DNA of 62,889 nt, from the NCBI GenBank assembly GCA_048886685.1, contig JBHLKM010000021.1:1-62889 (forward strand), written 5' to 3'. The translations under genes and the position numbers were made by a program. This document shows, one piece after another, positions 44,996 through 59,843 of the stretch. Source of the stretch: Candidatus Hodarchaeota archaeon (GTDB lineage Archaea; Asgardarchaeota; Lokiarchaeia; Sigyniarchaeales; SOKP01). Below the pieces are notes generated by a model, which did not search any database, was not told the origin of the DNA, and saw only the letters and a program-made list of their open reading frames with translations. Within the stretch, counting starts at the first letter, position 1; every line of letters begins with the position of its first letter.

Positions 44996-47356
44996 ATGAA
45001 TGAACGAATAAAAAAACTACATACTCAAAGTCGTGAAGCAATCCCTTATCTTTCTTTAGAACGAGCCTTATTAATAACGGAGTTCTTTAAAACTAGTGCT
45101 GCACATAAATATTCTCCTCCTGTTGCGAGAGCAGAAGCATTTAAATATATCCTTGAGAACAAAATAATCTGTATTAATGAAGGTGAGTTAATTGTCGGAG
45201 AACGTGGTCCAGAACCAAAAGCAACATCAACTTACCCAGAGGTCTGCTGCCACAGTCTACAAGACTTAGATATATTAAACACTCGAGAGAAAATATCATT
45301 TAAAGTATCAGAGGAGACAAGAAAAAAATCTAAAGAAATTATTATACCATATTGGAAAGGTAAGTCAATTAGACATAAAATCTTTTCTCAAATGGATCAA
45401 AATTGGCTAAATGCTTATAATGCGGGTATTTTTACTGAATTTATGGAACAGAGGGCACCTGGACATACAGCAGGAGGAGGAAATATATGGAGAAAGGGAT
45501 TTTTAGATTTTAAACAAGAAATAAAAGAAAGTGTTGAACATTTAGATTTCTATAATGACCCCGAAGCATTTAACAAACGAGAGCAGCTCAAAGCAATGAA
45601 TATCGCCGCAGATGGAATAATATCATTTGCTGAACGACATTCCCAAGAGGCTCTTCGATTAGCAGAAATTGAGTTTGATCCCATAAGAAAAGCAGAACTA
45701 AAAAAAATAGCAGAAATATGTTCTAATGTTCCCGCAAAAGCACCAACAACTTTTTGGGAAGCACTACAACACTACTGGTTCATTCACTTAGGTGTTATAA
45801 CTGAATTCAATACTTGGGATGCCTTTAATCCAGGTCGTTTAGATCAACATCTTTTTACTTTTTATCACAATGATCTATCTGAAGGTGTATTATCTAAAGA
45901 AGAAGCAATAGAGCTCCTACAAGGTTTTTGGGTAAAATTTAACAATCAACCTGCACCTCCAAAAGTAGGTGTTACAGCTGAAGAAAGTAATACTTATACT
46001 GATTTTTGCAATATTAACCTTGGTGGTTTAAAAGAAGATGGTTCTGATGGTGTAAATGAACTTTCCTACATCCTTTTGGATGTAATTGAAGAAATGCGGA
46101 TATTACAACCAAGTAGCAATGTCCAGATCAGTAGAAAAACTCCTGATGAATTTTTAAAACGCGCGATTAATATCATTAAGACTGGTTTTGGTCAACCCTC
46201 AGTTTTTAATACTGATGCGATTGTTCAAGAATTAATACGTCAAAATAAATCAAAAATTGATGCTTATAATAGTGGTGCAAGTGGTTGCGTTGAATCAGGT
46301 GCTTTTGGAAAAGAAGCTTACATTCTTACAGGATATTTTAATTTAGTAAAGATTCTTGAAATAACACTTCATAATGGGTTTGATCCATTAACCAGAATAA
46401 CTATTGGGTTAAAAACAGGAGATCCCACTAATTTTGAAACTTTTGATGATTTATTTGAAGCTTATAAAGAGCAAGTTACCCATTTTGTGAATATTAAAAT
46501 AAAAGGAAATCAAATAATAGAGCGAATTTGGGCTCAAAATCCAGCACCATTCTTATCGCTTCTAATAGAAGATTGTATTCAAAAAGGGAAAGATTATAAT
46601 GATGGAGGTGCAAAATATAATACATCTTATATTCAAATTGTAGGAATGGGAAGTATTACAGATTGTTTAGCATCTCTAAAGTATAATGTATTTGATAAAA
46701 AAATAGTACCTATGAAAGAATTATTAGGAATTTTAGATAATAATTTTCAAGAGCATGAGATACTACGACAGAAATTTATATACAAAACACCTAAATATGG
46801 AAATGATGATGATTATGCAGATTCCATAACACAAAAAGTATTTCAAATTGTATTCGATGCTATAGATAATCGTCCAAATACTCGAGGTGGTGTACATCGT
46901 ATCAATCTGCTTCCTACGACTGTTCATGTGTATTTTGGGAAAGTCACTGGTGCTATGCCAGATGGACGTAAGGCATTCATCCCATTATCAGAGGGAATTT
47001 CACCTGTTCAGGGAATGGATATCAATGGACCGACCTCAGTTATTAAATCTGCCAGTAAAATAGATCATCTACGAACTGGGGGGACATTACTTAATCAAAA
47101 ATTCACTCCTCAATTATTAGCAAATGAGTCAGGAATTACCAAATTAGCTCATTTAATAAGATCTTATTTTAAAATGGATGGACATCATATACAATTCAAC
47201 GTAGTTTCAGCAAACACACTAAAAGCTGCTCAAGAAAATCCAGAGGAGTATAGAAACCTGATTGTACGAGTAGCAGGATATAGTGACTATTTTAATAACT
47301 TAGGATCTGATTTGCAGGATGAGATTATTAGTAGAACTGAACATTCATTAATTTAA
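44996..47356 (+). CDS. hypD: Glycyl radical enzyme, trans-4-hydroxy-L-proline dehydratase
   Basis: FTEFMEQRAPGHT, WDAF.PGRLD, NNQPAPPKVG..ES.TYTDF, SGCVE, LPTT, RVAGY; ATG at 44996. Confidence 0.85.
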   Translation: MNERIKKLHTQSREAIPYLSLERALLITEFFKTSAAHKYSPPVARAEAFKYILENKIICINEGELIVGERGPEPKATSTYPEVCCHSLQDLDILNTREKISFKVSEETRKKSKEIIIPYWKGKSIRHKIFSQMDQNWLNAYNAGIFTEFMEQRAPGHTAGGGNIWRKGFLDFKQEIKESVEHLDFYNDPEAFNKREQLKAMNIAADGIISFAERHSQEALRLAEIEFDPIRKAELKKIAEICSNVPAKAPTTFWEALQHYWFIHLGVITEFNTWDAFNPGRLDQHLFTFYHNDLSEGVLSKEEAIELLQGFWVKFNNQPAPPKVGVTAEESNTYTDFCNINLGGLKEDGSDGVNELSYILLDVIEEMRILQPSSNVQISRKTPDEFLKRAINIIKTGFGQPSVFNTDAIVQELIRQNKSKIDAYNSGASGCVESGAFGKEAYILTGYFNLVKILEITLHNGFDPLTRITIGLKTGDPTNFETFDDLFEAYKEQVTHFVNIKIKGNQIIERIWAQNPAPFLSLLIEDCIQKGKDYNDGGAKYNTSYIQIVGMGSITDCLASLKYNVFDKKIVPMKELLGILDNNFQEHEILRQKFIYKTPKYGNDDDYADSITQKVFQIVFDAIDNRPNTRGGVHRINLLPTTVHVYFGKVTGAMPDGRKAFIPLSEGISPVQGMDINGPTSVIKSASKIDHLRTGGTLLNQKFTPQLLANESGITKLAHLIRSYFKMDGHHIQFNVVSANTLKAAQENPEEYRNLIVRVAGYSDYFNNLGSDLQDEIISRTEHSLI

Positions 47357-47454
47357 TTCTAATTTTTAATTTTTTTACTAAAATAAAATTAGAAGGGATT
47401 TTAAAAAAAACCTTTAAAAAGTAGTAGAGTGTGTTTTCCTCAAATTTTTTCAAT

Positions 47455-47510
47455 ATGTACATATTCGGTACATTTAAATATGATTATTTATATGTACATA
47501 ATCAGTACAT
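47455..47510. promoter_or_regulatory. Two ATGTAC-N7-GTACAT operators flanking a TATA box
   Basis: ATGTACATATTCGGTACAT (47455-47473) and ATGTACATAATCAGTACAT (47492-47510), with TTTAAATA between them. Confidence 0.75.
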
Positions 47511-47633
47511 AAAAAAATTAAAGGTTGAAAACAATTACTCAGAGTGTATTAAAAAAGTCAGACCGAGGAGAAATTAAAAACTCTCGATTTGATAGGTTTT
47601 TTAATTTTAGATGCGGAGGAAGGTGTAAAATTA

Positions 47634-48092
47634 GTGAATGAAAAAAAAGATTCAAAATCAGAAGAATCTCCCTCACCTGTTACTCTTAGATCTGCTGTAA
47701 TGAGCGAAATAAAAGAAACTCTTCCATCAGTTAGAAATGGTAGCTATTTGAAAAAACCTGATGAAGAAGAAATAAAAGCAAGAGAAATTGAGAAAGAAAA
47801 GAGAAAAGAAGAATTAAAAGAAGTAGAAAAAGCATTTAGAAAAACTAAACAAGTCAAATTTTTAGTGAGTGTTGCTGAATTAAATAACATTAAATATTAT
47901 GCGCAGATTTTTAATCAAACAAAATCAGAATTTATTCGTAGTGCGATAAGGGATAAAATAAAACTTATGGAAGCTCAATTGAGTGAAAAAGGTTTAAGCG
48001 AGTTTGATGTTAAACAAGAAGATAAGTTAAGTCTAGAAGAGTTAAAAAAGATTCGAAAAGCATTAGAAAAATTAGAAAAGAATGAGAAATAG
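47634..48092 (+). CDS. Ribbon-helix-helix (CopG-like) domain protein with charged helical extensions
   Basis: KTKQVKFLVS.AEL..IK.YA....TKSEFIRSAIRDKI; GGAGG/GGTG RBS then GTG at 47634. Confidence 0.75.
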   Translation: MNEKKDSKSEESPSPVTLRSAVMSEIKETLPSVRNGSYLKKPDEEEIKAREIEKEKRKEELKEVEKAFRKTKQVKFLVSVAELNNIKYYAQIFNQTKSEFIRSAIRDKIKLMEAQLSEKGLSEFDVKQEDKLSLEELKKIRKALEKLEKNEK

Positions 48093-48291
48093 GGAGTAAA
48101 TAATACTTATTCTATTTTTTATTTCAAAAATTTACATCTTAAACAATTGGCGAAAATTTGGGATGATCGATGTAAATTTTTACATTTAACAAATTATAAA
48201 TTATGAAAGTTTTATAATGGAAATGTGAATTTGATACTAAGAATCTTTTATATTATAAAACTTAATTAAAACCAGGGTTCTAAATAAAAAG

Positions 48292-49329
48292 GTGAAACTC
48301 ATCGAAAGCATTCACATCGATAATATCTCTTACCGTAGGTTAATTAAATTATTGAGAGTTAAAACAGGGTTAAACTTTGAATATTATAACAAGCCTTTTA
48401 TCGAAAAACGTATAAAATCAAGAATGATTCGGGTATATTGTGATGATCCTGAAGATTATTTAAAACATATTTCCTCCAAGGAAGAAGAAGTAAAAAAATT
48501 TGTAGATGGTTTCACAATAAATTATACGTTCTTTTTTAGGGATTATGATGTTTTTGAAACTTTCCAAGACATTCTGTTGCACGGATTAGGTGTTTCTAAA
48601 GAAGATGTTGAGAGTAATATTAGGCCAGATCCTTCAAAATTAGCCAATTTTCGCACTAAAGCTAATGCTGTTAAGAATTTGTTAAAAAGTAGACGATTAA
48701 CAGATAGGCCAGAGAAATATTATATTGATATTTTTATCTTTCTTAATCAACTAGCATTTTATAAAAAGTTAAAACTTGTTCCGAGTGAGAAAAATTCTAT
48801 TAACATATGGTCATGTCCATGTGCGACAGGTGAAGAACCATATTCAATTGCCATGATTATGGATAACCTTAAAGCTCAAGTCCCACGTTTTCCAAAATAC
48901 AAAATTGTAGCGTCAGATATAGCACATGAAGCCATAGAAAAAGCGAAAATCGGGATATATACAAATGATGCTATGAAAGAAATTTCAGATTATTATGAGA
49001 ACAAGTATTTCACCAAAAAAAAGACTCATTTTGGGTATAATAATTTAATAAGTGAAAGCATTAAAGGCAAGGTTGAATTTGTAGAAGAAGATGTGACAAG
49101 GGGTCATAATAGACCATATAAATATGACATTATTTTTTGCAGATATCTCTTAATTTATTTTAATCGTGAGAACCGTGCAAAATTTTTAAAAATCATAGAA
49201 AATCGATTAGTAGAAAATGGTATTTTAATATTAGGTAAAACTGAGACGCTTTTCGATTCATGGGGGAGTTTAAAGTTAATTGACGCAAGGAATAGGATCT
49301 ATATTAAATCTCATTCTAATTTATATTAA
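48292..49329 (+). CDS. cheR: CheR-type protein-glutamate O-methyltransferase (orphan)
   Basis: TINYTFFFRD, IWSCPCATGEEPYSIAM, ASDI, DIIFCRYLLIYF. Confidence 0.88.
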   Translation: MKLIESIHIDNISYRRLIKLLRVKTGLNFEYYNKPFIEKRIKSRMIRVYCDDPEDYLKHISSKEEEVKKFVDGFTINYTFFFRDYDVFETFQDILLHGLGVSKEDVESNIRPDPSKLANFRTKANAVKNLLKSRRLTDRPEKYYIDIFIFLNQLAFYKKLKLVPSEKNSINIWSCPCATGEEPYSIAMIMDNLKAQVPRFPKYKIVASDIAHEAIEKAKIGIYTNDAMKEISDYYENKYFTKKKTHFGYNNLISESIKGKVEFVEEDVTRGHNRPYKYDIIFCRYLLIYFNRENRAKFLKIIENRLVENGILILGKTETLFDSWGSLKLIDARNRIYIKSHSNLY

Positions 49330-49346
49330 CATTTTTCTCCCCTGAA

Positions 49347-50105
49347 TTAAAATATAAAAGGAATAAGAGCTTTACGGTTTTTTGGATAATCTGCAAAAGT
49401 ATTAATATACCATGAATGATTAGATCGTGCTCTTGGTGCAAGATTCGCAAATGTCCACACCGCAAATACAAGTCCGGGGAATGCCCATGTCATAAGTGCC
49501 CATCCAGTCCATTCTGTAATTTCTCCTAGATAACTTGGACAACTGACATATCTAAATATTCCACCATAAGGGATTTTATATTCAGTTTCTCCTGGTTTCC
49601 TTAATTTACGGATAATATAATCTGAATGTATATTGATTATGAATCCACATATAAAGATTAGAATACCAAAAATAAACATGGGAGTTAAAATCCAATTTAC
49701 AGCATAAGGTTTAGAAAATGTATAAATCCATCTTGCCTGCAAATAAGTATTAATACCATTAAACGTCATTCCCATTAAAATAATAGTAATAGGCATAGGT
49801 TGCTTACCACGTATTAAAAAGGGAAAAAGAAATGTTCGTTGACAATAATGTATCATCCAAATACTCATAAAAACTAATGGAATTAAATCTGTTCTATGAT
49901 TACCTATAAGATAATATATAATATAGATAATAACTGTTGGTACTTCCATTATAAACCATCCTAACTTGTTGTTAATAGTAGAACCCCATTTCTTATCTAC
50001 ATGTTGACCATAACCAGCTGGAATAAAAAATAATGCTATAAAAACCAAAACTGAAGTTAATCCAAAGCACAGTATTAGAATATTGTAAATTACAAACTCA
50101 TCCAT
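49347..50105 (-). CDS. Steroid 5-alpha-reductase (SRD5A/DET2) family membrane reductase
   Basis: A.YG, WFIMEVP, HY..R, HSD..LRKPGE..Y.IP.GG.F.YVS, GEI.EW.G, NLAPRA..H.WY. Confidence 0.88.
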   Translation of the reverse strand: MDEFVIYNILILCFGLTSVLVFIALFFIPAGYGQHVDKKWGSTINNKLGWFIMEVPTVIIYIIYYLIGNHRTDLIPLVFMSIWMIHYCQRTFLFPFLIRGKQPMPITIILMGMTFNGINTYLQARWIYTFSKPYAVNWILTPMFIFGILIFICGFIINIHSDYIIRKLRKPGETEYKIPYGGIFRYVSCPSYLGEITEWTGWALMTWAFPGLVFAVWTFANLAPRARSNHSWYINTFADYPKNRKALIPFIF

Positions 50106-50106
50106 T

Positions 50107-51528
50107 TTAATCAGTTCTACCATTTTGGTTTGATTTTAGTAATTCTGCTCTCTCTTCTAAGATCAGCGAAATTTCTTTCTTGTCCTTTTTATACCATTTA
50201 ATGCTTAATATCCATAAAATAATCCCTGGTATGGCAAAGATGCCAATTAATAAAGCAACAAGCTGATAATTTTCTCTAGACAATTCAATAAAAATACCTA
50301 TTATAAGTGGTCCTAAACCCCACCCAATGTTCTCTAATAATCGATTTAAAGAAACAATTTGTCCTTGGGCTTCGGGTAAATTTATTTCTTGCAATAATGG
50401 GGGTTGATTAACTTGATATAACGAAGAAATTGATGAGGAAATTGTCTCAATTATACCAATAATCCAAATCATAGGAAATGAAAAAAATAATAGAATATTC
50501 TTCCCTTCTTCTACTGTTAAATGTGGTAAAGGAAGATAAAATAGCAGAACGAAAGTACTTGCCCCTACTGTTAGTGCTAAGATAATTAGATATATTCTTC
50601 TTACATCCTTTTTTTTAGAATATTTATCAGATAATTTTGCAAATATTAATTTTAGGGTTAATCCACCAGTTAATCCAAACAAGGCAAAGAATAAACCAGT
50701 AACGAATGGGGAAAAATTGTGAGGACTTGTTTGGATATATGGAAGAAATAAAATAGTTAGGGAACCCATAAAGAGACTTGTAAAAATACCTTCGATTAAA
50801 GCCGCTAAATTGGTTTTACTAAATATCGTTTTTTTCATCATTCTTAAATTCAACCGAAAATCATAGCTTACTGATTCTTCTTCAAGAACTTTGTAGAGTT
50901 CTTTACGCTGTTCTCCTCTCTTTGGTTCAGGGATAGTAAGATACATTAATGAACCAATTAATATTAAACTAAGACCGGAGAGAAGAAAAAATAAGCGCCA
51001 TAAGCCTAATTCTATTAAATATCCAGTTATCACGAATCCTATTAATTGAAAGGATGATCTTATTATATTACGAATTCCAAAAAAGCGTGAGCGGTAATTT
51101 AAGGGGATCATATCATCTGAAAGAGAAGCAATAGTGGGATAATTACCTCCAGCAGATAGTCCTATAATAGACGTGAATATGTAAAAATATATCCAGGAAG
51201 AAATTCCTCTCCTAATAATAGTTAAACTTAACATTATCATGCAAAAACCTCTGACCAATGCTATCAAAAATAAGATTTTAGTTCTGCTATATTTATCAAT
51301 TAGACGCCCAAATAATAATCCCGCGAGGGAATTTGACAAAAACATAGAACTTATTAAAATTCCCATTTCAAGAGCATGATAAGACTCATCAGGCCAAAAT
51401 AGATTAGATAATGGCACAATTGAAATATAAATCCCACTAAACGCGATTGAAAAACACCCTGTTAAGAAATATATAGCCCAATAAGGTCTGAAAATGTGAA
51501 CCTTAGATTCGGAATCTGTACTAACCAT
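50107..51528 (-). CDS. MFS transporter
   Basis: GRLIDKYSR motif A, about 12 TM. Confidence 0.88.
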   Translation of the reverse strand: MVSTDSESKVHIFRPYWAIYFLTGCFSIAFSGIYISIVPLSNLFWPDESYHALEMGILISSMFLSNSLAGLLFGRLIDKYSRTKILFLIALVRGFCMIMLSLTIIRRGISSWIYFYIFTSIIGLSAGGNYPTIASLSDDMIPLNYRSRFFGIRNIIRSSFQLIGFVITGYLIELGLWRLFFLLSGLSLILIGSLMYLTIPEPKRGEQRKELYKVLEEESVSYDFRLNLRMMKKTIFSKTNLAALIEGIFTSLFMGSLTILFLPYIQTSPHNFSPFVTGLFFALFGLTGGLTLKLIFAKLSDKYSKKKDVRRIYLIILALTVGASTFVLLFYLPLPHLTVEEGKNILLFFSFPMIWIIGIIETISSSISSLYQVNQPPLLQEINLPEAQGQIVSLNRLLENIGWGLGPLIIGIFIELSRENYQLVALLIGIFAIPGIILWILSIKWYKKDKKEISLILEERAELLKSNQNGRTD

Positions 51529-54585: not shown

Positions 54586-57015
54586 ATGAAAATTTCAAGA
54601 AGAAATAGACCACTTGTTTTAATTTCACTTATTCTATTTCCTATGGCGATCATGCTTTGTTCCTTTAGCTTAAATGCGCAAGCTGGACCACCTATACCCG
54701 AACCAGATCCTAAAAATGGTTGGTATTGGGATGTCGATGTTGGAAATATAACGAGTTTTGAATGCGAATTCATTATAACAAATGCTACTACTGGAGAAGT
54801 ATCTGGGATGTGGAGGGATATTTGGATATATAACATAACTTCAATTGAAGATGTTACTATCGATTGGTTAGGAACACAAGAGTTTTCTCAGGTAAATGCG
54901 ACTATGTGCTATTATAATGTCACTGATGGTGTGAATGAATTGGAAGCATATGGTGAATCTTCTGAATTTGCGCTTTTTGGCTATAATAATATCACAGGAC
55001 AGCATAAAATCAGAGCAGGCAGTATGGGAATGCCTTTATTGTTGCCAAAAAATGGTTCGAGTTTAGAGGTTGATATATTAGCACCAATCATAAATGAAAC
55101 GTTTTATTATCCCATGGGTCAAATGGCATTTAATAAATTTGATCAATTTGCTTGGGATAATACTCCAAATGTAAATAGGATCCATTTCTGGAATTCTACC
55201 CCTGGACTGGGATATTACTCTGATGGATATTACTTTGATAATGGTACTTTAAATTACGGAGAAGCATATTTATGGGTCAACATGGATGGTAATCCTATGT
55301 ATATAAATGCTACAATGAAACAAGTATTTAATTATGATATAACAGATGAACTCGTATGGGGTGTTAGTGAAGGAGAAGTAATCTACTATGATTCGTATGA
55401 AGGTCCTGGTGGAATGGGGGCAGCAGTAGAAATGATGGTAAATATTACCAATATTTCTGATGTGTTGCTTAATAAAACGAAAAATAGCTTCAGTGATGAG
55501 GATTCTACTTATATGGTATTTCAAGCTGTTTTTGCGGATAGGTACTATTGGAATGGAACAGAATATAAATTCATAGATAACAACATAATCGGTGCGGCTA
55601 ATAATTTTTATCCTCAATATTACGATGAAGGGGGAGGAGGACCTCCAATAATGCCTTTCATTTGGCCTATAAGTGCTCCTTTGGAAGATTATGAATTCAT
55701 GTGGAACCTTGATACACTTCGCATCTGGGAGCAAATGTTCTATGATGAGATATACATTACCGAAAATGGATTTCTTGATTTTCTATTGAAAAACTCCACA
55801 GGTGTCGATTCTGTAGAAATTGTAATAGATAAGGCAACGGGCGTTACTCAAAAATTCCTAATGATAAGTCCTAATGGTATTATGTTATTTGAAAAGAAAT
55901 TTCAAACTTTAATTGAATGGTCTGTAAAACTTGGTGATGTTCTTTATTATAAAAATAATGAAAAAGAATTTCAGGATGTGAAATTAATAACAAATCAAAC
56001 AGGTATTTATTATGCAAATATCAGCGATTTATGTGCTTCAATAGGGTTAACCTTACCTCCTGGTCAGCCAGAACACCAATTTTTCTCATGTATAAACGCA
56101 TCCTTTGAAATATGGAATTATATGACAGATTCTTGGGTACCTGAAGGAGTTAAACCATTTGCTATGGCAAATATTTATTGGCCAATATCACCCTTACTGT
56201 TTGGAATGGGAGGACCTCCGCTATTCTTACCAAAAGGAACAACAAGCTCCGAACTTTCTGATCTCTTTGATGTGTATAGCAGTGTTTATGATGATATTAC
56301 ATATAATCCTGGTCAAGTAATACTTAGAAACACAGCATTGAATAGAGAACTAAATTTCAATTTTGATGAGATATCTGGGAATGTAACAATGATGTATGGA
56401 TGGAGGGCTGATCCAGTTGGACCACCTAATTGGAAATACATATCATATTACCCTAAATTCTATGAAGAACTCACTCCAGCAGTTCTAAATCACATTGTAT
56501 TTAACACTGATTTTCCTATTTCAGGATTAACTGTTAGCATGGATATTACCGCAGGACCTACAGGAGCAGGAGCAGCTTTAATATATACTTATTTCCCTAT
56601 GAATCCTGTTAATGTATCTTTACCTGAAGGTACTCCTATAGCTTACTTTGACCAACTACTTACTCATTGGACTTTAATTACAGGGAATATAACTATGACG
56701 CTTACACTTCCATTATCCATTGATATTAATAACATTATACCCTACTTCTACGCCTTCAACATGAGCGGGACACTCGATTGGGATCAAGCACCTCCTGAAT
56801 TTTATGCAAATAATCTTAGCTTCGATAACGCCACAAATTCAATAATAATTGAAATGGAACCATCTATGTTCTTTAAGGGCATAATATCAGCAATTTCTTA
56901 TAAGACTATTGAAGAAGCATTAGAAGAAATCCCTGGATATGACTTATTCTTACTCTCAATGATGATTATAATTTTCTCTGGTTTGGTTATTAGGAAAGTA
57001 CGTAAGGAGAAATAA
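54586..57015 (+). CDS. Secreted surface glycoprotein with three W.V..G...Y repeats and a C-terminal IPGY-TM-basic (Loki-CTERM-type) sorting signal
   Basis: Signal peptide ending AQA; EIPGYDLFLLSMMIIIFSGLVIRKVRKEK; many NxS/T sites. Confidence 0.8.
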   Translation: MKISRRNRPLVLISLILFPMAIMLCSFSLNAQAGPPIPEPDPKNGWYWDVDVGNITSFECEFIITNATTGEVSGMWRDIWIYNITSIEDVTIDWLGTQEFSQVNATMCYYNVTDGVNELEAYGESSEFALFGYNNITGQHKIRAGSMGMPLLLPKNGSSLEVDILAPIINETFYYPMGQMAFNKFDQFAWDNTPNVNRIHFWNSTPGLGYYSDGYYFDNGTLNYGEAYLWVNMDGNPMYINATMKQVFNYDITDELVWGVSEGEVIYYDSYEGPGGMGAAVEMMVNITNISDVLLNKTKNSFSDEDSTYMVFQAVFADRYYWNGTEYKFIDNNIIGAANNFYPQYYDEGGGGPPIMPFIWPISAPLEDYEFMWNLDTLRIWEQMFYDEIYITENGFLDFLLKNSTGVDSVEIVIDKATGVTQKFLMISPNGIMLFEKKFQTLIEWSVKLGDVLYYKNNEKEFQDVKLITNQTGIYYANISDLCASIGLTLPPGQPEHQFFSCINASFEIWNYMTDSWVPEGVKPFAMANIYWPISPLLFGMGGPPLFLPKGTTSSELSDLFDVYSSVYDDITYNPGQVILRNTALNRELNFNFDEISGNVTMMYGWRADPVGPPNWKYISYYPKFYEELTPAVLNHIVFNTDFPISGLTVSMDITAGPTGAGAALIYTYFPMNPVNVSLPEGTPIAYFDQLLTHWTLITGNITMTLTLPLSIDINNIIPYFYAFNMSGTLDWDQAPPEFYANNLSFDNATNSIIIEMEPSMFFKGIISAISYKTIEEALEEIPGYDLFLLSMMIIIFSGLVIRKVRKEK

Positions 57016-57106
57016 ATAATATCTAAATTTTATCCTTTTTTTTCTTTTTATTATTTAACTCTGATGTAAAAGTTTATAAATATACAAGTTAAATTATCTT
57101 ATAACA

Positions 57107-57193
57107 ATGATCTCATATCATACTGCTAAAAAAATAATGGTAAGGGTATCATTATCCTTAATTAGTATTATCTTAGTAGTAATGATTCTATAA
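57107..57193 (+). CDS. Leaderless 28-aa uORF / leader peptide
   Basis: MISYHTAKKIMVRVSLSLISIILVVMIL; TTTATAAATA at 57073-57082, about 25 nt upstream of the ATG. Confidence 0.45.
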   Translation: MISYHTAKKIMVRVSLSLISIILVVMIL

Positions 57194-57348
57194 GCGAAAC
57201 AATTCCGCTTGATCTTATTCTATAAATTGTACATGGATTTGTTCGCTTGAAACATGATATTTATTCGAAAAGGTCATTGGTGGGTTTGCTTCGCTTTTAT
57301 AATATGAGGGATAAGATAAATCAGAGAAAATAGAGGAATTGATTTAAA

Positions 57349-58797
57349 ATGGGAAATAAAAAAATGGAAACGAAAAGCCAAGTGATAGATTATTTACAAT
57401 CTAATTTTCTTGGTGTTGGGTTTCAAGAATTAAATGACTTAGTAATAAACAATCAAAATTGCGTTTTTTGTGGTGCCTGTATCTCATTATGTCCTCGTAT
57501 TGGGATGAATGAAAAAGAACCAGAGTTAATAGATAATGACCCGGAATGTTCTACCTGTTTTAGGTACTGTTCAAGAACTTATTTTCCTGAGGAAGTAATT
57601 AAAAAAGAACTATTTAATGATGGTATAAAGAAAAGTTACCCCTTAGGATTTCATCAGAAAATCGTAGCCGCAAAAAGTACTAATAATGACATATTGAGGG
57701 TAGCTCAAAATGGTGGAGTTGTATCTTCATTGCTTATTCATGGACTAGAATCGGGATTAATAGATGGAGTCATTCTTACTGATAAAAATGAGGAATGGGT
57801 TCCTAAACCTGTAATAGCGACAACTTCAGAGGAAATATTATCATACGCGGGTTCAAAATATACCATTACCCCCACTTTAAGTATTTATAAGGATGTGATT
57901 AATGAATACAATCTCAAAAAATTAGCCTTTGTAGGATTACCTTGTCAAATCCAAACAGTAAGAAAATTGCAGTTGTTTTCTCCTCTATCAAATGAGTATG
58001 GAAAGTTTACACTAATTATAGGGCTTTATTGTTATTCTAACTATTCATATGATTTAATGACTAAATTTGTTCAAGGAGAACTCGGGATTCCACTCAAAAA
58101 TGTTGAAAAAATCGATATTTCAAAGGCTAAATTCTATGTCTATATGAAAGATGGCTCGTACAGAGTAGCTCCAATACAGAAAACTAAAAAATTCACTTGG
58201 CAAAGCTGTCAATACTGTAAAGATTATAGTGCAGAAATTGCTGATATATCTGTTGGCAGTGTAGGAGTAGCAAAAAGCGACTGGAATAGTGTAATATTAC
58301 GTACTGACATTGGAACAAAGTTATTTAATGAGGCAGTTAAAGCTAAAGAAATAATTATCTCTGACGAAATTGAGCCTATCAAAATTGAAAAAGAATCACT
58401 ACGGAAGAAAACGCAGCTTACAAAAATTAATAAAGAAATAGTATTCCCATTACAGTTTTTAAATATTTCTGAATTCGAAATAAACATCTATTTAACTCTG
58501 ATGTCATTGGGAAGTGCTGATGAGTCTATTTTAAGTGAAGTTATGAAAGTAGATAAAAGTACTGTTAGAACAGCTCTCAAACAGTTAAAGCAACGAAATT
58601 GGATAATTGGAACAAATGGTTCATACTACACTGTTAATCCTACTTCAGTTCTTAATAATGAAATATATAAGTTAAGAAAAGAATTCTTAGAAAAAATTGA
58701 AAAATTAAAAAGCGAAGTTCTCCCTAATTTAGAGACTATATACGCTCAAAATAATTTTAAACACTTGCGATATGACGATGAATTGAATCTAATCTAA
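57349..58797 (+). CDS. Coenzyme F420 hydrogenase/dehydrogenase beta subunit (FrhB/FdhB) fused to a C-terminal TrmB-like wHTH
   Basis: CVFCGACISLCP, AQNGGVVS, GSKY, VGLPCQ, IGLYC, CQYCKD, ADISVG; then L.ISEFE..IYL.L...G......LS......KSTV..AL..L. Confidence 0.85.
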   Translation: MGNKKMETKSQVIDYLQSNFLGVGFQELNDLVINNQNCVFCGACISLCPRIGMNEKEPELIDNDPECSTCFRYCSRTYFPEEVIKKELFNDGIKKSYPLGFHQKIVAAKSTNNDILRVAQNGGVVSSLLIHGLESGLIDGVILTDKNEEWVPKPVIATTSEEILSYAGSKYTITPTLSIYKDVINEYNLKKLAFVGLPCQIQTVRKLQLFSPLSNEYGKFTLIIGLYCYSNYSYDLMTKFVQGELGIPLKNVEKIDISKAKFYVYMKDGSYRVAPIQKTKKFTWQSCQYCKDYSAEIADISVGSVGVAKSDWNSVILRTDIGTKLFNEAVKAKEIIISDEIEPIKIEKESLRKKTQLTKINKEIVFPLQFLNISEFEINIYLTLMSLGSADESILSEVMKVDKSTVRTALKQLKQRNWIIGTNGSYYTVNPTSVLNNEIYKLRKEFLEKIEKLKSEVLPNLETIYAQNNFKHLRYDDELNLI

Positions 58798-58818
58798 AAC
58801 ATTAAACTAAATTTTTTA

Positions 58819-59748
58819 CTATTTAAAAGAAGGAATTATTAACTCTGCGAATTTGTTCAAACTGGTTAAGCTTGGAAAATCTAAAAATCCTGTTATAATA
58901 TGATTTACGCCAACTTTTTTGTATTGTTGAATTATTTCTTTAATGAATGATGAATTTCCAATCATATGATTCAGTTCCTCAACTGGAGTGTTCCGATATT
59001 TAGAGATTGCTTCCAATTCTCTTTTTGCTAAAGTATTATCATCAGTTATAAGTGTGTATGCTGCTCCACCATAGGCGATATCAAGATTATTTATATTTCT
59101 TCCAATTTTTCCCATTGTTCTTTTTAGTTCTTGAAGATCCCTTGAAAAATCATCTGGTGATGGCAAAACAGGAATCCAACCATCCGCTTCTTCTGCTACT
59201 AATTGCTTAATTGCTTGAGATTTACCACCTATCCATATTGGAGGATGAGGTTTTTGAACTGGTTTTGGTTCTAGATTTGCGTTTAAAGTTTTATAATATT
59301 CCCCATTAAAACTAACATTATCTTCAGTCCATAACTTCTTCATAAGTAAAATAGATTCCTTAAGACGATTTATTCTATTAGAAAGATTATCCCAAATGAA
59401 ACCATAAGAAATATGTTCAGCTTTATACCAACCAGCGCCAATACCTAAATTTATACGACCTTTAGAAATGTGATCTATTGTAGAAACCATTTTTGCTAAT
59501 AGCGAAGGATGTCGAAATTGGTTACAAAGTACGTATGTGCCTAAATGAATTTTTTTTGTAGCGCTTGCCAATGCAGAAAGGATTGTCCACGCTTCTAAAC
59601 CAAATGAACGATCTTTTGGAGAAATTAAATGATCACTTATCCAAATTGAATCATATCCTAATCGTTCAGATTCTTGAGCAATCCTTAAGAACTTTTCCCA
59701 ATCAGCATAAGACGCCGTTGAATGAATAATTACTCCAAATTGAATAAT
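58819..59748 (-). CDS. LLM-class (probably F420-dependent) oxidoreductase, probable ATT start
   Basis: Upstream extension IQFGVII...AQESERLGYDSIWISDH...EAW; RHPSLLAKM, GIGAGW, PKPVQKPHPPIWIGG. Confidence 0.85.
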   Translation of the reverse strand: MIQFGVIIHSTASYADWEKFLRIAQESERLGYDSIWISDHLISPKDRSFGLEAWTILSALASATKKIHLGTYVLCNQFRHPSLLAKMVSTIDHISKGRINLGIGAGWYKAEHISYGFIWDNLSNRINRLKESILLMKKLWTEDNVSFNGEYYKTLNANLEPKPVQKPHPPIWIGGKSQAIKQLVAEEADGWIPVLPSPDDFSRDLQELKRTMGKIGRNINNLDIAYGGAAYTLITDDNTLAKRELEAISKYRNTPVEELNHMIGNSSFIKEIIQQYKKVGVNHIITGFLDFPSLTSLNKFAELIIPSFK

Positions 59749-59843
59749 TAACCAACTATATATTTTGATTAATGAATCTATTGTAAATTATTTTTAAGAT
59801 TAATAAAAATTGTGCCATAGATAAGTTTTGAAGAAGGTGAAAC

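Follow-up and report, generated by a model that had tools for sequence, protein, structure and literature searches.

A ferredoxin–FrhB protein of Asgard archaea with a TrmB-type C-terminal domain

FrhB-type modules are the standard means by which archaea wire enzymes to coenzyme F420. Joined to a ferredoxin domain, such a module makes up FpoF/FqoF, the soluble or complex-bound input subunit of F420H2 dehydrogenase, and in Methanosarcina soluble FpoF works as a ferredoxin:F420 oxidoreductase. Other proteins, among them PutA, BirA, NadR and the NADH sensor Rex, couple metabolism to transcription by a DNA-binding domain that is joined to an enzyme domain or to one that binds a cofactor. Here we describe a gene of an Asgard archaeon in which a ferredoxin–FrhB module continues, in the same frame, into a winged helix-turn-helix (wHTH) domain of the TrmB type. 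The gene lies on the forward strand of a 62,889-nucleotide stretch of DNA from Candidatus Hodarchaeota archaeon, and we refer to this whole stretch as the window. We suggest, with a probability of roughly 0.55, that its product is a ferredoxin–FrhB F420 oxidoreductase module whose TrmB-derived C-terminal domain has been recycled for dimerisation or scaffolding. The activity that we propose is thus the one exerted by soluble FpoF.

Architecture of the fusion and its closest described relatives

The best structural counterpart of the fusion is the zeta subunit of the carbon monoxide dehydrogenase (CODH)/acetyl-CoA decarbonylase/synthase complex of Ca. Ethanoperedens thermophilum (8RIU chain B). 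In this subunit, a ferredoxin domain with two [4Fe-4S] clusters (residues 1-83) precedes an F420-reductase domain (84-349); the ferredoxin domain anchors zeta to its partner, and a C-terminal extension provides the homodimer interface (PMC11493965). The fusion shares with zeta, and with FwdI from the same organism (8RJA chain E), an N-terminal two-cluster ferredoxin domain followed by an FrhB-type domain with flavin adenine dinucleotide (FAD) plus a [4Fe-4S] cluster. When the predicted structure of the fusion was compared with Foldseek, 8RIU chain B ranked first (E 7e-25 over 354 columns; sequence score 200 bits), followed by FrhB chains of the Frh hydrogenase, FwdI and Fsr. Both the fusion and zeta carry a C-terminal extension, and the TrmB-like tail of the fusion starts at the point exactly equivalent to that of zeta; the extension is a 20-aa peptide in zeta, whereas in the fusion it consists of a 120-aa TrmB-type wHTH and long helix. 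The two proteins also differ in the second ferredoxin motif, where the fusion has Asp64 and zeta has Cys, and the first 30 residues of the fusion have no counterpart in zeta, the alignment beginning at residue 28. Moreover, no CODH or Fwd partner genes adjoin the fusion, which occurs in an Asgard archaeon instead of an alkanotroph.

The gene is a single open reading frame (ORF) with the domain order ferredoxin, FrhB_N, FrhB_C, TrmB-type winged helix and long helix. Its parts, with the evidence for each, are the following (amino acid numbers refer to the fusion protein).

57349..58797, + strand: the whole fusion ORF (clade A, see below), 482 aa; from the ORF list and translation, with over 118 relatives of equal length that are 56-86% identical
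57349..57438, + strand: conserved N-terminal helical extension, aa 1-30, with G24, F25 and L28 invariant; alignment A1, and AlphaFold2 helices at 9-17 and 25-33
57439..57588, + strand: ferredoxin domain, aa 31-80; weak Fer4 matches, FpoF profile and invariant Cys
57640..58365, + strand: FrhB F420-reductase module, aa 98-339, with FAD, F420 and [4Fe-4S] site (Cys199, 228, 287, 290); PF04422, PF04432, NCBIfam, alignment to crystallised FrhB, and Foldseek
58366..58431, + strand: linker and FrhB C-terminal helix, aa 340-361, with R352, K353 and K354 conserved; alignment to the FrhB tail 'EKLSLTKKE' and invariant A1 columns
58432..58638, + strand: TrmB-derived winged helix, aa 362-430, with recognition helix at about 401-416 and shortened wing at 419-428; PF01978, AlphaFold2 and TrmBL2 fold matches
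58639..58794, + strand: long amphipathic helix, aa 431-470, and short tail, the counterpart of the TrmB dimerisation helix; AlphaFold2, heptad pattern and TrmB alignment

The original prediction had placed the fusion at 57349-59748. Its start stands, but the fusion stops at 58797, and 58819-59748 belongs to another gene, which converges on the fusion from the minus strand. The proposal that all four elements (ferredoxin, FrhB, TrmB-like wHTH and coiled helix) are encoded in one frame was confirmed by the ORF, by Pfam and by the structural model. The Pfam matches lie above the gathering scores for PF04422 (FrhB_FdhB_N, aa 106-179, 3e-26, 91.7 bits versus a cut-off of 22), PF04432 (FrhB_FdhB_C, aa 190-339, 2e-39, 135.1 versus 23.3) and PF01978 (TrmB, aa 368-432, 9e-10, 38.7 versus 25.6), and are weak for Fer4 (aa 31-75). 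Among NCBIfam profiles, an FrhB subfamily matches at 2e-80, the FpoF profile covers aa 32-338 (2e-50), and positions 3-98 of the TrmBL1 profile align with aa 361-457. The AlphaFold2 model, built as a single chain on 44 relatives and without cofactors, has a mean predicted local distance difference test (pLDDT) score of 79.7; confidence is low at aa 38-67, and the model places a confident wHTH at 362-428 (pLDDT 85-95), followed by a long helix at 431-468. After the full-length matches, the next Foldseek group covers the C-terminal ~110 residues only: TrmBL2 chains (5bpd, 5bpi, 5box; root-mean-square deviation 2.5-3.2 Å), then MarR-like regulators. A TrmB-type wHTH at the C terminus is therefore borne out by both profile and fold.

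Conservation of ligands and motifs suggests that the enzyme half is intact. The ferredoxin domain holds the motifs C38-x2-C41-x2-C44-x3-C48-P and D64-x2-C67-x2-C70-x3-C74, and these seven Cys and Asp64 are each conserved at 97% or more in 118 relatives. The ferredoxin can thus still be called complete, as had been proposed, with the nuance that beside its seven Cys it has an invariant Asp aligning with a Cys of zeta. The four cluster Cys of the FrhB domain (C199, C228, C287, C290) reach the same level of conservation, and all align with Cys of crystallised FrhB. This domain (aa 98-359) is 39-50% identical to FrhB of F420-reducing [NiFe] hydrogenases (9R51, 4OMF, 6QGR); in the alignment to 9r51_B of Methanothermococcus thermolithotrophicus (212 bits), the flavin and F420 motifs QNGG, GSKYT, G-x-PCQ and DIS-x-GS are identical or nearly so. 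Hydrogenase FrhB differs in having neither a ferredoxin domain nor a wHTH tail, and no FrhA or FrhG is encoded near the fusion. FpoF/FqoF shares the ferredoxin and FrhB architecture; however, the fusion scores 171 bits against an equivalog cut-off of 444, has no Fpo genes nearby, and carries the TrmB tail in addition. The window genome (4.4 Mb, 47 contigs) encodes CofD, CofG and CofE, which score 323, 380 and 271 bits and pass the curated cut-offs, so F420 is available in the organism. Taken together, the enzyme part looks fully competent.

Constraint on the TrmB-derived tail

The tail is recognizably a TrmB domain. We aligned it with canonical TrmB proteins, three of them from the window genome, and found the hallmarks of the family retained: a first helix of the form E-x-x-x-Y...L...G, the hydrophobic core, an R-x-W ending helix 3, and a P-containing long helix. 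The latter aligns with its canonical counterparts, the 'LP.LE' segment included, and its conserved hydrophobic residues follow heptad spacing from V434 to L461. Like TrmB, TrmBL1 and TrmBL2 (PF01978), the fusion thus combines a wHTH with a dimerisation-type helix. It departs from these regulators in position, since their TrmB domain is N-terminal (residues 4-120 of canonical relatives) and that of the fusion C-terminal (aa 362-470 of 482), and in having no sugar-binding effector domain. It departs from them also in the parts that would read DNA. The wing is 4 residues shorter than the canonical wing in every member of the family and is without the Arg and Lys residues found there, and the canonical start of the recognition helix, (R/Y)-(S/T)-x-(V/I)-Y, is replaced by variable and frequently acidic residues; an R/K-x-(V/I)-Y signature is absent. 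Across the 118 relatives, residues 401-408 at the start of this helix have a net charge between -3 and +2, which is negative in 58, the wing is neutral in 85, the wHTH has a mean net charge of about -0.3, and no Lys or Arg of the tail reaches 97% conservation. We do not use the net charge of the wHTH as an argument in its own right, given that canonical TrmB wHTHs, by eye, are not strongly basic either, and rely on comparative constraint instead.

As a control for this comparison, we took the best canonical TrmB of the window genome (on contig C13) with 24 orthologues from the taxonomic family of that genome, and set it against 11 clade-A fusions of this family. Column conservation was as follows.

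Whole protein: control TrmB 0.84; clade-A fusion 0.74
wHTH: control TrmB 0.95 (its most conserved part); clade-A fusion 0.67
Recognition helix: control TrmB 1.00 (invariant); clade-A fusion 0.55
Wing: control TrmB 0.95; clade-A fusion 0.56
Enzyme domains: control TrmB not applicable; clade-A fusion 0.78-0.80

In the control, the part that does not bind DNA (beyond residue ~110) stands at 0.78; in the fusion, the highest values belong to the ferredoxin and FrhB domains, with the ferredoxin domain on top at 0.80. The recognition helix and wing are thus the least conserved parts of the fusion and invariant, or nearly so, in the control, and the pattern of constraint is inverted with respect to a real regulator. 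The original prediction had gone from the presence of a wHTH to a redox-sensing transcription regulator, and this step finds no support in the comparison.

A search with the C-terminal 128 aa against 1.84 billion representative proteins returned 29 matches and no close stand-alone or split form: the strong matches were fusions or fragments of them, and the weak ones (~30% identity) were ordinary TrmB regulators of 230-280 aa.

Distribution, genomic context and the 5' leader

A protein search recovered over 120 clusters, 473-486 aa in length, in which all three Pfam domains of the fusion recur at 56-86% identity; they are labelled as metagenome-assembled genomes of Promethearchaeota, Lokiarchaeota, and Heimdall-, Hod- and Thorarchaeota; one Atlas cluster with 81 members has the same architecture. 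A second full-length copy is present in the window genome itself (G000:C2:307014-308432; 51% identity; TrmB Pfam match at 8e-7). Because of these many same-length relatives and the second genomic copy, the fusion can be neither unique to this assembly nor an artefact of it. Among 300 genomes of the phylum searched, full-length fusions occur in about 30, which belong to four genera of the window's family and to two other families, in one of which it is represented only by a partial gene where a contig ends. At least three clades can be distinguished: A (the window type), B (the type of the second copy) and a third that is 41% identical. The window genome has at least ten additional FrhB paralogues with other fusions (MvhD-FrhB, FrhB-GltD-like, N-terminally extended); those of ~500 aa are extended at the N terminus, and one of 911 aa ends in a GltD-like C terminus. 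Among all its FrhB paralogues, the TrmB tail is found on only two genes. The claim that no characterised protein has this architecture agrees with our literature search, in which we found no paper that combines FrhB and TrmB or describes the fusion, and no F420-sensing regulator; a survey of fusions and fissions in Archaea does not mention an FrhB-TrmB fusion (PMC11237513).

The genomic settings of clades A and B differ. For clade A, the comparison took in 11 loci, each with flanks of at most 8 kb per side. The window copy is monocistronic, with a gap of 333 bp upstream, and its neighbours (an 809-aa orphan, a haloacid dehalogenase-type hydrolase, major facilitator superfamily transporters, a convergent luciferase-like monooxygenase (LLM) gene and an acyltransferase) are not conserved in other genera; the orientation of the gene relative to its neighbours also varies between loci. 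In a congeneric genome (G206; L036:3027-7932), the fusion and its leader are inserted between the genes for the subunits (large and B12-binding small) of methylmalonyl-CoA mutase and the gene for the MeaB GTPase. Clade-B genes lie among redox genes. In the window genome, the clade-B copy is near genes for an Mpt_N/Rossmann protein, an HdrD/TfrB-like protein and a duplicated HdrA2-like protein; in genome G275 it is directly downstream of HdrA2-MvhD and the small- and large-subunit genes of a [NiFe] hydrogenase; and in a second family the genes after it encode a further FrhB-like protein, a GlcD-like FAD oxidase and an HdrD-like protein. The statement that no hydrogenase or formate dehydrogenase subunits are nearby consequently holds for the window, but not for clade B. 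These settings fit an electron-transfer component, and a local regulator would be compatible with them as well.

Two observations on clade B can be recorded in their own right. The redox island around the second copy (locus L052, G000:C2:299014-316432, and on to ~326 kb) holds, beside this fusion and a 623-aa MvhD-FrhB protein, a 561-aa protein with an MtdA/B-like Mpt_N and Rossmann half and an N-terminal half of no recognised family, a 209-aa orphan, the HdrD/TfrB-like protein, the duplicated HdrA2-like protein (1036 aa), more FrhB paralogues and, at 324985-326274, a group-3-like [NiFe]-hydrogenase large subunit. In addition, a conserved motif, GATCATTTATATG, is found ~100 nt upstream of clade-B fusions (loci L044 and L048-L052) and is duplicated in L048. 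This motif is probably the transcription factor B recognition element and TATA box, but could be a cis-regulatory site.

Upstream of clade-A genes, we observed a conserved 5' leader with the following elements.

57073..57348, + strand: conserved 5' leader of the fusion, in 6 orthologous loci
57073-57082, + strand: TATA-like, promoter-like box, conserved upstream of the six closest clade-A orthologues
57107-57193, + strand: near-leaderless upstream ORF of 28 codons, Ile/Leu/Val-rich, unchanged in length and position across 6 orthologous loci
57192-57206, + strand: segment A, overlapping the stop of the upstream ORF, complementary to B and to C
57235-57248, + strand: segment B, complementary to A
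57282-57298, + strand: segment C, complementary to A and followed by a T-run

Nucleotide columns of the leader are 83% identical among the six closest clade-A orthologues. The small ORF begins ~25-30 nt past the promoter-like box, and Ile, Leu and Val make up nearly all of its C-terminal half. Segments A, B and C allow helices that exclude one another: RNAalifold chose the A:C hairpin, and the orthologue at L034 has a compensatory G-to-A / C-to-T change in A:B. To judge from its sequence, the leader looks like a leader-peptide attenuator and resembles the ilv-type attenuators of bacteria, which suggests that expression of the fusion gene is tied to branched-chain amino-acid status. Leader-peptide control is typical of metabolic enzymes, and the conserved mini-ORF with its competing RNA helices therefore suggests enzyme-style control of the gene. 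We looked for a second copy of the leader in the window genome as the sign of a regulon; the A..B pattern occurs there only once, and the idea was dropped. In aligned upstream regions of both clades we saw a promoter-like box, plus the RNA leader in clade A, and no convincing conserved palindrome.

Some neighbouring genes deserve a brief description. The gene that converges on the fusion is the following.

58819..59748, - strand: LLM-class (F420-type) oxidoreductase gene; Pfam Bac_luciferase 7e-42 and NCBIfam F420 LLM subfamilies

Its frame is open for ~320 codons (58819-59787), with no ATG, GTG or TTG before the TTG at 59571, and the Pfam match of a protein starting there begins only at profile position 61; the gene either uses a non-canonical start (ATT or ATA) or is damaged at its 5' end. 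The convergence pointed out previously is real in the window, although orthologous loci do not keep this adjacency. The 809-aa ORF immediately upstream of the fusion (54586-57015, + strand) has no Pfam or NCBIfam match and is not a conserved neighbour elsewhere. Further off in the window (45392-50123), a glycyl-radical enzyme like pyruvate formate-lyase, a CheR-type methyltransferase and a steroid 5-alpha-reductase-like membrane protein are encoded close together. Finally, at G000:C4:100776-102236 a [NiFe]-hydrogenase large-subunit-like frame is followed, with an in-frame TGA, by a short frame matching the C terminus of FrhA; the TGA may be a selenocysteine codon, or the large subunit may be split.

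Possible function and its meaning

We propose the following mechanism for the fusion as a soluble protein of the kind of FpoF, zeta and FwdI. F420(H2) would exchange hydride with the FAD of the FrhB domain. The electron path would then lead over the [4Fe-4S] cluster of FrhB and both clusters of the N-terminal ferredoxin domain and end, or in the opposite direction begin, at ferredoxin or at a partner enzyme docked to the protein. The TrmB-derived winged helix and long helix, which would no longer read DNA sequence, may serve for homodimerisation or scaffolding; this leans by analogy on the zeta homologue, whose own extension forms the homodimer. Expression of the window copy (clade A) would probably be tuned by the leader, through its Ile/Leu/Val-rich mini-ORF and alternative RNA helices. 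Such leader control points to a role in the redox balance of amino-acid or acyl-CoA fermentation, where the protein might, for instance, re-oxidise ferredoxin reduced by 2-oxoacid oxidoreductases.

Several observations weigh against this proposal. Plain dimerisation would not obviously need a whole wHTH fold, and yet the fold has been kept in three clades and several families. Some basic positions of the tail are fairly conserved (R416 at 98% in alignment A1, K400 at 82%, K412 at 70%), and the recognition helix of the window protein, D-K-S-T-V-R-T, resembles that of some canonical TrmBs. In the window genome, the clade-B copy is divergent from the MvhD-FrhB gene, with 200 bp of intergenic region between them, the classic layout of a regulator and its target. 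Lastly, no neighbour is common to the clade-A loci across genera within the flanks compared, and no partner is named in this way.

Several of these points speak for a one-component redox regulator, or 'trigger enzyme', in which the FrhB and ferredoxin domains would sense the redox state of F420/F420H2 or ferredoxin and alter the binding of a dimeric tail to DNA, controlling redox or fermentation genes. The TrmB match is genuine and above cut-off, the dimerisation helix, which places two wHTHs relative to each other, is part of the TrmBL2-like fold, the tail is under purifying selection in all members, the organism makes F420, and clade-B genes adjoin F420 and Hdr genes. In the literature that we searched, neither this fusion nor an F420-sensing regulator is described. 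Nevertheless, we find this explanation doubtful. The surface that would contact DNA is the least constrained part of the protein and invariant in a canonical TrmB from the same genomes; it is often acidic at the start of the recognition helix, with a truncated, uncharged wing. PutA, BirA, NadR and Rex, which are not homologous to the fusion, have a conserved and basic DNA-binding surface, which the fusion does not. A promoter together with an RNA leader seems to account better than a palindromic operator for what is conserved upstream, an attenuator-like leader would be unusual on the gene of a regulator, and a pure sensor would need no fully conserved two-cluster electron relay. Both functions might also be combined: an active ferredoxin/F420 oxidoreductase would bind DNA by its divergent, wing-less tail as well, in a manner set by the redox state of the flavin and Fe-S centres, and the Ile/Leu/Val leader attenuator would gate its own synthesis. 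We consider this combination unlikely; if true, it would make the protein the first one-component transcription factor to respond to F420, a 'trigger enzyme' specific to Asgard archaea.

Improbable, in our view, is a third explanation, in which the fusion is the F420-input subunit of a larger complex, such as an Hdr-like bifurcating enzyme, a group 3 [NiFe] hydrogenase or an acyl-CoA mutase system, with the winged helix as a protein-protein docking domain. FrhB-type modules do plug into varied partners (CODH in 8RIU, Fwd in 8RJA, Fsr), clade-B genes are embedded in clusters with HdrA2, HdrD, MvhD-FrhB and hydrogenase genes, one clade-A gene sits within a mutase-MeaB cluster, and either end of the long helix bears conserved polar residues (N437, E438, E462, Q467, N468). 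However, clade-A genes change neighbours and orientation between genera, the window copy is monocistronic, under a promoter and leader of its own, and the known cases dock by the ferredoxin domain, not by the C terminus. That the fusion is the beta subunit of a genuine Frh hydrogenase, with alpha and gamma genes elsewhere, is largely refuted: beside its identity to crystallised FrhB, the domain scores best against FrhB profiles and just passes PRK09325 (269.9 bits versus a cut-off of 269), but it stays below the equivalog TIGR03289 (259.8 versus 331.5), the window genome has no FrhA above cut-off (best 152 versus 392.5 bits), and canonical FrhB has no N-terminal ferredoxin domain.

Under the preferred reading, these fusions call for care in automatic annotation, which would class them as TrmB regulators or as 'F420 hydrogenase beta subunits'; they are probably neither. 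A family-wide fusion of FrhB to a regulator-derived domain is undescribed in the literature that we searched, and the window genome carries a dozen or more FrhB-type modules with different fusion partners. The Ile/Leu/Val mini-ORF leader may outrank the fusion itself in interest, because leader-peptide attenuation has, to our knowledge, not been demonstrated in archaea. Should the tail bind DNA, it would provide the first direct link from F420 redox state to transcription, in the lineage closest to eukaryotes. If instead it only dimerises, the family would be a clear case of a DNA-binding domain recycled as a structural part.

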